This document shows positions 2,915-46,044 of a stretch of DNA of 64,000 nucleotides, in pieces; positions within the stretch are counted from its first letter, which is position 1; every line of letters starts with the position of its first letter. The notes beneath the pieces are model-generated. The model had not been told where the DNA came from and did not search any database. It worked only from the letters and a program-made list of their open reading frames with translations. Where the stretch lies: the sequence record NC_054929.1; one strand, written 5' to 3'. This DNA comes from Escherichia phage PE37. The position numbers were made by a program, and so were the translations under genes.

Positions 2915-3084
2915 ATAGTTTTGAGTTACAATATGAAGTGTTACGTGAGCTTGATAATTTAATTGAACTCGCTGCTAATAAAGGTTTTGCCATTGGAATC
3001 GGTCAAAAAGATACTGACCATTTAACTACGGAAATATTTAAGCAAAAGCGAATTATTTTAAAACTCCTGGAAATTAATATATGA
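2911..3084 (+). CDS. hypothetical small protein (57 aa)
   Basis: Hand-called ORF, ATGA overlaps on both sides; below track size cut-off. Confidence 0.4.
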   Translation: MNSFELQYEVLRELDNLIELAANKGFAIGIGQKDTDHLTTEIFKQKRIILKLLEINI

Positions 3085-15939: not shown

Positions 15940-16151
15940 TGCTCGAAGGAACTGACTATATTCACGATTACCGCGGAAGCGCGGTATATGTAGGTGATGA
16001 AGTTGCAGTTTATTATGGGTATGGAACTTTGATGACAGCAAAGGTTATTCAAATTAAAAATAATCGTGCTAAACTCGAAGTTTATTATTCTAATGATGAA
16101 AAGTCTATTTCTAAGTGGAAATACGGCGATTGTATGGTTAAATTGGGGTAA
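15936..16151 (+). CDS. hypothetical protein (71 aa)
   Basis: Track ORF, ATGA overlap. Confidence 0.5.
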   Translation: MMLEGTDYIHDYRGSAVYVGDEVAVYYGYGTLMTAKVIQIKNNRAKLEVYYSNDEKSISKWKYGDCMVKLG

Positions 16152-20999: not shown

Positions 21000-21002
21000 G
21001 AC

Positions 21003-21024
21003 GGGCCCTCTGGGCCTTTCTTTC
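21003..21024 (+). terminator. intrinsic terminator
   Basis: ggccc-tct-gggcc hairpin followed by T-rich tract. Confidence 0.5.
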
Positions 21025-21097
21025 TCGCATTCTGTATATTACCATTCTAAGCTATCGTTCCTTTCTTATCATTCCCTAAAATATTTTTCACAAAGTT

Positions 21098-21127
21098 GTT
21101 TACAACGAGCTCAAACTGTGGTATTAT
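21098..21127 (+). promoter_or_regulatory. T4-type early promoter
   Basis: gtttacaacgagctcaaactgtggtattat. Confidence 0.5.
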
Positions 21128-21157
21128 TAACACATGAATTGCCTTTGAGGAATTGAT

Positions 21158-21340
21158 ATGGTTATGATTGATAAAGAAATTAAAAAGGGACAGTATTATC
21201 TCATTAATGGTAATGCTGTTCGTGTTACTCATGTAAATAGTTTTGAAGTTTGCTATATTATACTCAAGTTACATAAACGCATGATTTGTGATCGTGCTGC
21301 ATTTAGTTCAGTTGCTAAGGAAATTAAACTCCATGGGTAA
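21158..21340 (+). CDS. hypothetical protein (60 aa)
   Basis: Track ORF with GAGGAA RBS. Confidence 0.45.
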   Translation: MVMIDKEIKKGQYYLINGNAVRVTHVNSFEVCYIILKLHKRMICDRAAFSSVAKEIKLHG

Positions 21341-42578: not shown

Positions 42579-43214
42579 ATGATTTATTATATGCACAAAA
42601 ATCCACCGTTTAAATACGGTAAATTTCCTGATGCACAATGTTATAATATAACACCTGATGAAAATAACCGTGGATATCTTATTGGCACAATTTTTGTAAT
42701 TGTTAAAGATAACGAAATCGTTGCCTGGGCAGATTTTAAAGGTACAACATATGATGTTAATCCGGTGCCTTTCACATATTACAATATAATGGATTTGGCG
42801 TACGATTATAATTGGTTTAATCATGACACGTTGGCTCCTCATATTGAAGGTGTAGGATTTGACATCTCTTATTCTAGTTACTCGTTGTGTCCTATGAGCC
42901 GAGCTCATAGAGAGCCTGAATATTTTTCATTTCGTCGGCGTGTAGACTTTAAACGCAGCACAGAGTATGTCGGTGGAATATTTGTTAAAGATAATCGAAT
43001 TACTCGCATTATTTATCCTTTGGGCGGTGGTCAAAAAGATATTGATGTTGATTTAGACTTTACTGAAAACATCATTAATCATATTGCTTCTGTGTATTTT
43101 GATATTGATCACAAAATTGTAATATGTGGATATGAATTACCATCAGAAAAACAGTCTAAAGTAAATGTTTCTATTGATGACCAAATTTTTAATGCTTTTA
43201 TGAATAGAGGTTAA
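42579..43214 (+). CDS. hypothetical protein (211 aa)
   Basis: Track ORF. Confidence 0.6.
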   Translation: MIYYMHKNPPFKYGKFPDAQCYNITPDENNRGYLIGTIFVIVKDNEIVAWADFKGTTYDVNPVPFTYYNIMDLAYDYNWFNHDTLAPHIEGVGFDISYSSYSLCPMSRAHREPEYFSFRRRVDFKRSTEYVGGIFVKDNRITRIIYPLGGGQKDIDVDLDFTENIINHIASVYFDIDHKIVICGYELPSEKQSKVNVSIDDQIFNAFMNRG

Positions 43215-43382: not shown

Positions 43383-44411
43383 ATGTCATCAATACCTTGG
43401 ATTGATAATGAGTTTGCGTATCGTGCATTAGCTCATTTACCTAAATTCACACAAGTAAATAACAGTTCAACTTTTAAATTGCGGTTTAGATGTCCTGTTT
43501 GTGGAGATTCAAAAACCGACCAAAATAAAGCCCGTGGATGGTATTATGGTGATAATAATGAAGGAAATATTCATTGTTATAACTGTAACTATCATGCACC
43601 AATCGGAATATATTTAAAGGAGTTTGAACCCGATTTATATCGTGAGTATATCCTTGAAATAAGAAAAGAAAAAGGTAAAAGTCGTCCAGTAGAAAAACCT
43701 AAAGAACTTCCTAAGCGACCTGAGAAGAAAATAATTAAATCTCTTCCGTCATGTGTTAGATTAGATAAACTGGCGGAAGACCATCCAATTATAAAATATG
43801 TAAAAGCTCGTTGTATTCCAAAGGATAAATGGAAATATCTTTGGTTTACAACCGAATGGCCTAAATTAGTTAATAGCATAGCACCGGGAACATACAAAAA
43901 GGAAATTTCTGAGCCTCGTCTTGTTATTCCAATTTATAATGCTAATGGAAAAGCTGAGTCTTTTCAAGGACGTGCATTAAAGAAAGATGCTCCTCAAAAA
44001 TATATCACCATTAAAGCTTATCCTGAGGCAACAAAAATATATGGAGTCGAACGAGTTAAAGATGGTGATGTATATGTTCTAGAAGGACCTATAGATTCAC
44101 TTTTTATTGAAAATGGTATAGCTATTACGGGTGGTCAATTAGACCTAGAAGTTGTTCCATTTAAAGATAGACGTGTGTGGGTCTTAGATAATGAACCTCG
44201 TCACCCTGACACTATCAAACGAATGACTAAATTAGTTGATGCAGGAGAAAGGGTTATGTTTTGGGATAAATCTCCCTGGAAATCAAAAGATGTCAATGAT
44301 ATGATTAGAAAGGAAGGTGCAACCCCTGAACAAATTATGGAATATATGAAAAATAATATTGCACAGGGGTTGATGGCTAAAATGCGGCTATCTAAATATG
44401 CCAAGATTTAA
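43383..44411 (+). CDS. 61: DNA primase gp61
   Basis: 342 aa; zinc ribbon CPVCGDS...CYNC; TOPRIM-like region. Confidence 0.93.
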   Translation: MSSIPWIDNEFAYRALAHLPKFTQVNNSSTFKLRFRCPVCGDSKTDQNKARGWYYGDNNEGNIHCYNCNYHAPIGIYLKEFEPDLYREYILEIRKEKGKSRPVEKPKELPKRPEKKIIKSLPSCVRLDKLAEDHPIIKYVKARCIPKDKWKYLWFTTEWPKLVNSIAPGTYKKEISEPRLVIPIYNANGKAESFQGRALKKDAPQKYITIKAYPEATKIYGVERVKDGDVYVLEGPIDSLFIENGIAITGGQLDLEVVPFKDRRVWVLDNEPRHPDTIKRMTKLVDAGERVMFWDKSPWKSKDVNDMIRKEGATPEQIMEYMKNNIAQGLMAKMRLSKYAKI

Positions 44412-44608
44412 ATTAACCCAACTAAAGCAAATGCTAAATCTACGAATGTATCAAGAGTAACTACTGGAATATTAATACCATGTGCAATTGCAACAGGTGA
44501 TAGAATAAAGTTCCAGAGTAAAATTCCTACCATAGCAGAAATAGTAAAAGCTATACGTTTCTTATTACCTTTTATGGCATTAACAAGTGCCATTAATTTT
44601 TGTACCAT
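44408..44608 (-). CDS. antisense small membrane protein (66 aa, 2 predicted TM helices)
   Basis: Only minus-strand gene in window; strong AGGAGGA RBS; ATAAATA late-promoter-like motif upstream on minus strand; stop overlaps gene 61 stop. Confidence 0.55.
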   Translation of the reverse strand: MVQKLMALVNAIKGNKKRIAFTISAMVGILLWNFILSPVAIAHGINIPVVTLDTFVDLAFALVGLI

Positions 44609-44648
44609 ATATATATATCCTCCTTTAAATTAATATTTATCATAAATT

Positions 44649-44678
44649 TGTTTACTTTCTCAGCTTGTTATGGTATTA
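44649..44678 (+). promoter_or_regulatory. T4-type early promoter
   Basis: gtttactttctcagcttgttatggtattat upstream of 44705 ORF. Confidence 0.5.
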
Positions 44679-44704
44679 TAAAATAAATTGCTGAGGATGA
44701 TATA

Positions 44705-46042
<1,338 letters not shown>

Positions 46043-46044
<2 letters not shown>

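Follow-up and report, generated by a model that had tools for sequence, protein, structure and literature searches.

The closest described relative of the gene examined here is RB69ORF029w (NP_861719.1) of phage RB69. Together with phrog_2024, whose annotation in PHROGs is 'unknown function', it represents a family that is already known as a 'hypothetical protein' encoded downstream of DNA primase in T-even-type phages. A transmembrane segment spanning residues 21-41 was predicted for the RB69 orthologue, and no site before RB69ORF029w appears in the HMM-based list of RB69 late promoters (Nolan et al. 2006).

Early and middle transcripts of T4 all run counterclockwise (PMC2988020). T4 late promoters need no -35 or other upstream element, and position -13 is tolerant of change: among 50 late promoters listed, 32 are perfect and nine carry A at -13 (PMC2988020). 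The same position is poorly conserved among relatives of T4 (PMC1524935). A T4 dRNA-seq study describes 150 start sites, 22 of which are antisense (bioRxiv 10.1101/2024.04.04.588121).

The stretch of DNA analysed here, 64 kb long and called the window below, contains a member of the RB69ORF029w family on its minus strand. The encoded protein of 66 aa is 55% identical to the RB69 protein and shares with it size, position convergent with gene 61 and a predicted transmembrane segment; nothing essential differs between the two. An earlier note on the window had described a hydrophobic minus-strand ORF of 66 aa, preceded by an AGGAGGA ribosome binding site and ending on the stop of gene 61. The ORF is intact at the coordinates that it gave, and both the ribosome binding site and the overlap are present. 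The features of the locus are as follows.

43383-44411, plus strand: gene 61 (DNA primase), the convergent, invariant neighbour that anchors the position of the small gene.
44408-44608, minus strand: ORF with ATG start, coding sequence of the 66-aa small membrane protein (phrog_2024 / RB69ORF029w family; membrane location predicted).
44408-44411: TTAA common to both convergent stops (gene 61 on the plus strand, small ORF on the minus strand).
44609-44618, minus strand: (AT)5, a 10-nt spacer from Shine-Dalgarno sequence to ATG; in relatives the ATG follows AGGAGG by 2, 4, 6 or 10 nt.
44618-44624, minus strand: Shine-Dalgarno sequence AGGAGGA; AGGAG(G/A) or GGAGG stands 2-10 nt before the ATG in eight of eight lineages.
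44634-44641, minus strand: GATAAATA, predicted gp55-type late promoter (consensus TATAAATA, here with G at -13), 25 nt upstream of the ATG.
44651-44679, plus strand: sigma-70/T4-early-like promoter, (G)TTTACT-17-TATTAT with upstream TG, facing the 186-aa ORF and dam; deleted in T4.

The stop codon of gene 61 lies at 44409-44411 and that of the small ORF at 44410-44408, so that the two share the TTAA palindrome. The same 4-nt overlap is found in T4, RB69, F2 and HMGUkp2. The two genes overlap by 21-24 nt in PM2 and Q7622 and are separated by an 18-nt gap in Shark_ER15. Plus-strand ORFs occupy 95% of the window, and the 66-aa ORF is the only minus-strand ORF of at least 60 aa that falls within a plus-strand gap in the 64 kb. 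The sole other minus-strand ORF with low overlap, at 21047-21232, lies 40% under a plus-strand ORF. No other minus-strand gene in the window is credible, as the earlier note had proposed in calling the 66-aa ORF the only antisense gene. In the first 50 kb of a T2 record, all 94 annotated genes, early and middle, are on one strand, opposite to the 66-aa ORF.

Comparison with the PHROGs profiles assigned the protein to phrog_2024 with an E-value of 1.4e-31, residues 2-66 aligning to positions 1-65 of the 65-position profile. The RB69 protein and divergent members from Klebsiella, Pectobacterium and Enterobacter phages were assigned to the same family with E-values of 1e-24 to 1e-27. The ORF was found by tblastn in 695 phage records, near full length in 685; carriers include T4, RB69 and phages of Klebsiella, Enterobacter and Pectobacterium. 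A divergent Klebsiella-phage member used as the query identified 344 records, including phages of Salmonella, Klebsiella, Citrobacter and Edwardsiella. Loss of the ORF from closely related isolates with otherwise identical flanks, which the earlier note had named as a refutation, is not indicated by the counts: the ORF is present at 90% identity or more in 501 records, compared with 500 records with gp61 at 95% or more. The gene is missing at the gene 61 locus in Karamvirus Pet-CM3-4, Kagamiyamavirus EcS1 and Krischvirus Aragogtheria and is thus not universal.

The ORF has a dN/dS of 0.1-0.2. Pairs below saturation give a pN/pS of 0.11-0.23, and comparison of Tequatrovirus with Mosigvirus gives a saturated pS of about 0.75 and a pN of about 0.31. 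The numbers of variable sites at codon positions 1/2/3 were 10/2/11, 7/0/12 and 34/19/53, position 2 being far less variable than position 3. In addition, the reading frame, start codon, Shine-Dalgarno sequence and length (63-69 aa) are retained across eight lineages whose identity falls as low as about 30%. The profile match and the purifying selection indicate that the ORF is more than a chance occurrence, and by this conservation it is a genuine gene that is widespread among T4-like phages (Tevenvirinae).

Further searches added little to the family. A phmmer search of 1.84 billion representative sequences returned nine matches, of which the long ones (P0032, P0036 and P0037) were rejected as spurious hits to repetitive proteins. 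Word-indexed protein searches returned T4-like phage proteins only. Matches labelled Shigella, E. coli or Salmonella are on contigs of up to about 167 kb that look phage-derived, and a scan of IMG/VR yielded only seven loci. Neither the protein nor a three-sequence profile used as the query matched Pfam, NCBIfam, PADLOC or PDB sequences.

The small gene is convergent with gene 61 in T2, T4, RB69, F2, Q7622, PM2, HMGUkp2, Shark_ER15 and HMD-9, and its neighbour on the far side varies, being the nuclease-like ORF, dam, gene 56 or a MazG-like gene. It is among the most consistently retained small genes near the primase locus in T-even-type phages. The T4 copy is intact and unannotated at NC_000866 17738-17938, in the 309-bp gap between dam and gene 61; the copy in the window, a Tequatrovirus allele, is 98.5% identical to it. 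T4 lacks 539 bp corresponding to 44639-45177 of the window, which include most of the nuclease-like ORF and its promoter. The deletion junction abuts GATAAATA, and both the small gene and the 8-bp motif were retained. Despite its clear coding signature, the gene is left out of the reference annotation of T4 (NC_000866) and of at least one curated and carefully annotated T2 record. Genome-wide screens and expression atlases of T4 that are built on the reference annotation would have passed over it. Literature searches on RB69ORF029w, on T4 small proteins and ribosome profiling, on antisense and late promoters, and on the gene 61/dam region turned up no mention of the gene.

Several observations bear on how the gene may be transcribed. 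The earlier note had pointed to an ATAAATA-containing element resembling the T4 late promoter just upstream of the ORF, and such an element is indeed present. GATAAATA is followed by TTAATTTAAA; the element would occupy -13 to -6 with AT-rich DNA downstream, and its single deviation is at -13, where G is outside the commonest variants, T (32 sites) and A (9 sites). A [T/A/G]ATAAATA element stands 13-33 nt 5' of the ATG in every lineage examined, in the perfect form TATAAATA in Q7622 and HMGUkp2, and within Tequatrovirus it persists in three upstream contexts that are not homologous to one another. In NC_054924.1 the 8-mer GATAAATA bears the annotation 'promoter'.

The motif is otherwise avoided in the window. 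Counting both strands of the 64 kb, NATAAATA occurs five times compared with about 41 expected, a depletion of about eightfold; TATAAATA occurs twice (11.3 expected) and VATAAATA three times (29.7 expected). Only two copies of NATAAATA are on the minus strand, one of them that of the small gene, and the three plus-strand copies precede rI.-1/rI, gene 49 and soc. In positions 1-50 kb of the T2 record, the single copy of the motif on the strand of the small gene is the gene's own. The conservation of the motif, its depletion in the window and the plus-strand copies before rI, gene 49 and soc together give good support to late, gp55-dependent transcription.

The promoters of soc, gene 49 and rI are the nearest counterparts. 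Each of these genes is likewise preceded by a short NATAAATA element, 13-33 nt from its start codon, and by a strong Shine-Dalgarno sequence, and none requires a promoter element further upstream; they are late genes embedded in early regions with their own TATAAATA promoters. The small gene differs from them in having G rather than T or A at -13. It also differs in strand: soc, gene 49 and rI lie on the early (counterclockwise) strand, where read-through from early promoters is possible, whereas the small gene lies on the opposite strand and so should be strictly late. Its clockwise orientation is compatible only with late transcription. Thus, the gene is probably transcribed late from an ATAAATA-type T4 late promoter. 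If this reading is true, changing GATAAATA to GATCAATA is expected to abolish the transcript and to phenocopy a knockout, and the gene stands out, in a very well studied phage, as a clean candidate for a small protein of the inner membrane that is made strictly late.

The predicted transcription start lies near 44626-44629, which would give a leader of about 20 nt. A conserved minus-strand sigma-70 promoter at 44724-44697 was considered and rejected; the site lies within the DNA deleted in T4. Likewise, the idea that a conserved terminator separates the two convergent genes was discarded, the plus-strand hairpin with a T-run at 44574-44593, inside the ORF, being weak and lacking an equivalent in RB69 and Q7622. 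No minus-strand terminator was detected downstream of the small ORF.

The protein has a GRAVY of +1.25. Its charge map places five basic residues before the hydrophobic core and, after it, only two aspartates, D53 and D57. An AlphaFold2 model (mean pLDDT 80) contains helices at residues 2-12, 16-42 and 52-63, and both the model and hydropathy predict one transmembrane helix at about residues 19-42. The invariant alignment columns form a conserved core, W-N-F...P...H/Q-G...P. The predicted layout is as follows.

Residues 1-18: basic amphipathic N-terminus.
Residues ~19-42: transmembrane helix with invariant W32-N33-F34 and P38.
Residues 43-51: conserved HG...P loop.
Residues 52-63: short amphipathic helix with D53/D57.

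The product is therefore predicted to be a single-pass membrane protein with its N-terminus inside. Foldseek comparison of the AlphaFold2 model with the PDB gave no matches, and comparison with BFVD returned family members only, one of which is named 'Holin' without evidence.

From these features a mode of action can be proposed. The small gene is a lone clockwise gene, placed tail-to-tail with gene 61 inside a long counterclockwise block of early and middle genes. Most probably its transcription is confined to the late period, when RNA polymerase bearing the phage sigma factor gp55 would start from the 8-bp GATAAATA, and the leader of about 20 nt would bear the strong Shine-Dalgarno sequence. 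The product would insert in the inner membrane by one helix at about residues 19-42, the basic N-terminus remaining cytoplasmic, and the C-terminal residues (about 24, hydrophobic and acidic-striped) would lie at or in the periplasmic face. It may act by helix-helix association, with itself or with a larger membrane protein, as suggested by the invariant polar and aromatic core W-N-F...P...H/Q-G...P in and after the helix.

AcrZ, MgrB, MgtS and SgrT offer an analogy for such a mode of action. They too are single-pass proteins of less than 70 aa with conserved residues in or beside the transmembrane helix; they have no homology to the 66-aa protein, and the likeness is an analogy only. Conserved residues of the type found in AcrZ, MgrB, MgtS and SgrT suggest binding of a larger membrane protein. 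Our preferred guess, offered tentatively, is that the 66-aa protein is a late-acting modulator of the envelope, affecting lysis timing, lysis inhibition or membrane integrity. A bolder and more doubtful proposal is that this overlooked, strictly late membrane gene of T4 supplies a missing component of a classical late membrane process in T-even phages that is incompletely explained, through helix association by the conserved core. If so, candidate processes are the stabilization or timing of lysis inhibition, the triggering of the holin, or a late block to superinfection.

Other readings concern either the origin of the ORF or its function. With regard to origin, the earlier note had suggested that the small gene and the nuclease-like ORF share a divergent promoter region and belong to the same inserted module. 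The shared region is present: the intergenic DNA is 96 bp (44609-44704) and holds the late-like motif on the minus strand and the early-like promoter on the plus strand, which faces the 186-aa ORF, so that the two promoters are physically divergent. It is this arrangement of both genes around one short region that would make the small gene an immunity or regulatory partner within an inserted module of nuclease-like ORF and dam. The distribution of the two genes in sequence records refutes such membership. The nuclease-like ORF is present in only 162 records, compared with about 700 for the small gene, which is anchored to gene 61. The 539-bp deletion in T4 took the nuclease-like ORF and its promoter and left the small gene intact. 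Furthermore, RB69, F2, Q7622, PM2, HMGUkp2, Shark_ER15 and HMD-9, like T4, carry the small gene without the nuclease-like ORF, and these seven mostly lack dam as well. We give this partnership almost no credence, and since the two genes have independent histories the locus is not evidence of a mobile 'nuclease + immunity' cassette. It is nearly as improbable that the feature is not a protein gene at all, being instead a late RNA antisense to the gene 61 message, the 3' UTR of gene 61 or its terminator, or an ORF that arose by chance in an AT-rich spacer. A late transcript would run antisense into gene 61, given that no minus-strand terminator was detected downstream; the weak T-run hairpin lies within the ORF; and the reference annotations of T4 and T2 omit the ORF. 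Against these points, the amino-acid sequence is conserved across distances at which synonymous sites have saturated, and variation is lowest at second codon positions. The frame, length, Shine-Dalgarno sequence and start codon persist through eight lineages, and neither RB69 nor Q7622 conserves the hairpin. Besides its coding function, the gene could also exert an antisense effect on gene 61. A real, late gene for a small membrane protein, independent of the nuclease-like insert, is the reading that we hold with good confidence.

With regard to function, the earlier note had offered exclusion, immunity and a holin-like activity as examples. The region around gene 61 in T4 is rich in genes of the first kind, sp and imm acting in exclusion and dmd and 61.4 having anti-toxin activity; such genes are present in the window or in its relatives. 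A small inner-membrane protein conserved mainly among phages of enterobacteria might likewise block DNA entry late in infection or neutralize a membrane-associated host defence. Imm and Sp are also small envelope proteins from the same general genome region. However, both are early genes on the early strand, Sp having a cleavable signal peptide and Imm two transmembrane segments, whereas the small gene can be read only clockwise from a late-type promoter. The 66-aa protein resembles neither Imm nor Sp, matches no PADLOC model and gave no PHROG or Pfam cross-match, and its purifying selection and near-universal retention in Tequatrovirus resemble a housekeeping accessory rather than an arms-race gene. 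A role in exclusion, immunity or anti-defence is therefore unlikely. A holin- or pinholin-like pore former, which would oligomerize late in the inner membrane and permeabilize it, is rather unlikely too. The protein is small, hydrophobic and probably late. Its transmembrane helix contains a conserved Asn, and a pore might be lined by the two acidic residues that share one face of the C-terminal helix. Holins with one or two TMDs, such as T7 gp17.5 and the lambdoid S21 pinholin, are similarly small and late, with a transmembrane helix and possible oligomerization via polar membrane residues. No sequence or profile similarity to these holins was found, and no holin family was matched in Pfam, NCBIfam (E up to 1-10) or PHROGs, nor any fold in the PDB. 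The charge is reversed in the 66-aa protein: the charged, hydrophilic C-terminal tail is absent, the C-terminal 24 residues being hydrophobic and the basic cluster N-terminal. No endolysin, spanin or antiholin gene is adjacent in any lineage, rI is about 40 kb away in the window, and T4-like phages already possess a holin, T. The name 'Holin' given to the OE5505 orthologue in UniRef/BFVD is an entry name to which no evidence is attached. More doubtful still is a morphogenetic or virion role, in which the protein would, late in infection, tether head or tail assembly to the inner membrane or act there as its chaperone, or would be a small hydrophobic part of the virion that serves in DNA injection. 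The inferred late timing fits structural and assembly genes, the gene keeps a fixed position in many Tevenvirinae genera, and the strong Shine-Dalgarno sequence suggests substantial synthesis. Yet it is unlinked to structural gene clusters, it is missing at the locus in some genera whose T4 morphogenetic core is complete, and literature searches gave no report of the 66-aa protein in virion proteomes.

One record of a 'mutant T4' carries a 2-bp deletion inside the small gene. If genuine, this deletion means that the phage can do without the gene under laboratory conditions.

The window comes from a Tequatrovirus genome of the T2/T4 type, and its region 43800-45900 shares 98% identity with phages vB_EcoM_112, PhiZZ30 and T2. 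Plus-strand ORFs cover 95% of it, and sp, 61.2, 61.1 and then gene 61 follow one another on that strand. The layout around the small minus-strand gene is as follows.

43383-44411, plus strand: gene 61 (primase)
44408-44411: TTAA common to the two convergent stops, of gene 61 and the small ORF
44408-44608, minus strand: small ORF of 66 codons with an ATG start, in the gap between gene 61 and the 186-aa ORF
44609-44618, minus strand: (AT)5 spacer of 10 nt from Shine-Dalgarno to ATG
44618-44624, minus strand: AGGAGGA Shine-Dalgarno
44634-44641, minus strand: GATAAATA, 25 nt 5' of the small-ORF ATG
44705-45265, plus strand: 186-aa nuclease-like ORF
45265-46044, plus strand: dam, with gene 56 beyond

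The antisense ORF, AGGAGGA sequence, motif and stop overlap described in the earlier note were correct in every detail. Its description as the only antisense gene also held, as this is the sole minus-strand ORF of at least 60 aa located in a plus-strand gap of the window, and in T2 the 94 genes annotated over the first 50 kb all lie on the strand opposite to it. The only other minus-strand ORF of at least 60 aa with low plus-strand overlap (21047-21232, 61 aa, 40% covered) is located at the plus-strand gap 21000-21157.

Selection on the small ORF was estimated by Nei-Gojobori counts. Unsaturated pairs gave pN/pS values of 0.11-0.23, and between Tequatrovirus and Mosigvirus, where synonymous sites are saturated (pS ~0.75), pN was ~0.31. 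Variable sites at codon positions 1/2/3 numbered 10/2/11, 7/0/12 and 34/19/53 in three groups, with position 2 always the least variable. Down to ~30% identity, the homologues retain the reading frame, the ATG, a Shine-Dalgarno and a length of 63-69 aa. Since the ORF overlaps gene 61 at the stop codon only, this constraint is not borrowed from the other strand. Judged by these sequence comparisons, the small ORF is under purifying selection and is a real gene.

The gene was found by tblastn in 695 phage records: 501 Tequatrovirus records at ≥90% identity, and 194 records from Mosigvirus and others at 38-56%. With a divergent Klebsiella-phage member as query, Jiaodavirus-type, Salmonella, Citrobacter and Edwardsiella phages joined the family. 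Along its whole length the product matches PHROG family phrog_2024 (E 1.4e-31), and all divergent versions hit this PHROG too. Absence from close relatives, which the earlier note took as a sign against the gene, was not found: the 501 records with the ORF at ≥90% compare with 500 carrying gp61 at ≥95%, so the gene is essentially never lost in Tequatrovirus. It is absent at the gene 61 locus in a Karamvirus, a Kagamiyamavirus and a Krischvirus. The family is not new as an object, being a catalogued hypothetical protein (RB69ORF029w, phrog_2024) annotated in hundreds of GenBank records. What is useful is that the T4 and T2 reference annotations omit the gene and that it has never been characterized; no paper on it was found. 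In the record OL964745.1 ('mutant T4 clone T4_7t1', ~1726-1930 of locus L023), a 2-bp deletion frameshifts the ORF, just 41 codons of it are annotated, and dam is fragmented too. Unless the indels are sequencing errors in the record, that laboratory lineage can do without the gene.

The small gene runs tail-to-tail with primase in T2, T4, F2, Enterobacter phage Q7622 and Pectobacterium phage PM2, in RB69, where it is annotated as RB69ORF029w, and in Klebsiella phages HMGUkp2 and Shark_ER15 and Escherichia phage HMD-9. Its other flank varies, being the nuclease-like ORF, dam, gene 56 or a MazG-like gene, and the 186-aa ORF occurs in only 162 records. T4 lacks the 539 bp corresponding to window 44639-45177, that is, the early-type promoter of the 186-aa ORF together with its first ~158 codons, and the deletion junction abuts GATAAATA. 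An intact small ORF, 98.5% identical to the window copy, is nevertheless retained in T4 (NC_000866, 17738-17938), unannotated within the 309-bp dam/gene 61 stretch. The primase-linked position, the 695 versus 162 records and the T4 deletion that spares the gene refute the proposal that it shares an inserted module with the nuclease-like ORF; on this comparative evidence it belongs with gene 61.

The 186-aa ORF itself gave weak but consistent matches to type II restriction endonucleases (Pfam DpnII, E 0.0096; BanI; HSDR_N; PADLOC REase_II, E 1.3e-4). A copy 44% identical is found in Klebsiella phage KPV15, and T4 keeps just its last ~26 codons after the deletion. Because GATC is the target of both DpnII-type enzymes and Dam, the ORF and dam could form a phage-borne nuclease/methylase pair.

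A [T/A/G]ATAAATA motif lies 13-33 nt before the small-gene ATG in all lineages compared. The 8-mer is TATAAATA, the perfect consensus, in Q7622 and HMGUkp2, AATAAATA in RB69 and F2, and GATAAATA in T4, T2, PM2 and Shark_ER15, the last having an additional CATAAATA nearer the ATG. Within Tequatrovirus, the motif is retained at 20-25 nt in three non-homologous upstream contexts (T2-type, T4-type deletion and gene 56-adjacent type), which fits a promoter of the T4 late kind, as these need no upstream element (PMC2988020). Elsewhere in the window such sequences are avoided: TATAAATA was observed twice against 11.3 ± 3.4 expected and VATAAATA three times against 29.7 ± 5. The octamer NATAAATA is ~8-fold under-represented, with five copies on both strands against ~41 expected.

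3867, plus strand: NATAAATA
17269, plus strand: NATAAATA
46627, plus strand: NATAAATA
43010, minus strand: NATAAATA
44634, minus strand: NATAAATA

The three plus-strand copies directly precede rI.-1/rI, gene 49 and soc, all of them expressed late. This depletion and placement suggest that late promoters arising by chance in the early region are strongly selected against. On the anti-early strand of T2 (1-50 kb), the sole copy is the one before the small ORF. Early and middle transcripts of T4 are all counterclockwise (PMC2988020), so a clockwise gene can only be late. The annotation of phage Lutter marks exactly the small gene's 8-mer as a promoter. Two points count against a late promoter: the RB69 late-promoter HMM list has no site at the small-gene position (Nolan et al., 2006), and the G at -13 in the window copy is a rarer variant. 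Position -13 is the most tolerant, with A in 9 of 50 T4 late promoters (PMC2988020), and is poorly conserved in relatives (PMC1524935). Motif conservation, varied contexts, avoidance elsewhere, strand and literature all agree, and the late-promoter-like motif of the earlier note is probably a gp55-type (late sigma factor) promoter; the gene probably encodes a strictly late, small membrane protein.

An orphan GATAAATA (43010-43017, minus strand) lies inside 61.2, antisense to its coding sequence. T4 shares the site (L004, 4830), and it is missing in T2, where 61.2 is shorter. The 34-codon ORF that begins right after it has no leader, so the site is more likely to mark an antisense start or to be a chance occurrence that is tolerated. 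In RB69, the short intergenic region beside the small gene (L014 ~2999-3040; RB69 coordinates 15998-16038) carries the AATAAATA motif of ORF029w on one strand and, on the other, a predicted MotA-type middle promoter for gene 56 (Pm:16038; Nolan et al., 2006). The back-to-back promoter layout thus recurs with a different partner gene.

The 66-aa product is very hydrophobic (GRAVY +1.25); five of its first 18 residues are basic, with D53 and D57 as the only charged ones further on. The AlphaFold2 model (mean pLDDT 80; 16-sequence alignment) has helices at 2-12, 16-42 and 52-63, the last two joined by a conserved H43-G44-x3-P48 loop. Invariant columns are G14, K16, W32-N33-F34, P38, G44, P48, A61 and L65. 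By the positive-inside rule, the N-terminus is predicted to be cytoplasmic, residues ~19-42 to span the membrane and the last ~24 residues to lie at or in the periplasmic leaflet, in keeping with the small hydrophobic membrane protein first proposed; a helical hairpin instead of this single-pass topology is possible. A conserved Asn within a membrane-spanning helix classically drives helices to associate, from which we infer that the product works by associating with itself or with a larger membrane protein. For RB69ORF029w, a transmembrane segment was predicted at 21-41 (Nolan et al., 2006). No characterized family matched by sequence or fold; exhaustive phmmer returned only homologues in T4-like phages and repeat proteins, the latter rejected as spurious.

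The probable late timing, membrane location and features suggesting oligomerization or partner binding prompt a tentative guess that the product might be a late accessory envelope factor, with a part in the timing or inhibition of lysis or in membrane integrity. Roles in exclusion, as the earlier note suggested, in anti-defence or in morphogenesis are possible alternatives. A true holin is unlikely, as the product has no holin family match and a reversed charge distribution, the gene lies apart from the lysis genes, and holin T is already present in T4-type phages. Of the earlier interpretation, the real gene, probable late promoter and membrane protein therefore stand, the nuclease module falls away and the holin-like label is unsupported.

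Since no minus-strand terminator was seen downstream of the small ORF in the window sequence, a late transcript may also act antisense on the 3' end of gene 61, although this could not explain the protein-level conservation. A perfect 9-bp inverted repeat, CAACCCCTG ... CAGGGGTTG (44320-44328 and 44364-44372, 35-nt loop), was spotted by eye within the last 90 nt of gene 61, just 3' of the small-ORF stop on the minus strand. It lacks the T-run of a canonical terminator, and the stem could form in either transcript. Another hairpin (44574-44593, plus strand), on the strand of gene 61, resembles a terminator and is followed by TAATTTTTGT. It falls within the 5' end of the small ORF, is weak, with 8 pairs of which 3 are G-C, and has no counterpart in RB69 or Q7622. 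The Shine-Dalgarno-to-ATG spacer is a variable AT-dinucleotide or ACAT tract (window; L001-L004, L010, L011, L022 and L023), whose length is 10 nt in the window, 6 in T4, 4 in T2 and others and 2 in the mutant T4 record. It resembles a microsatellite prone to slippage and could tune translation.
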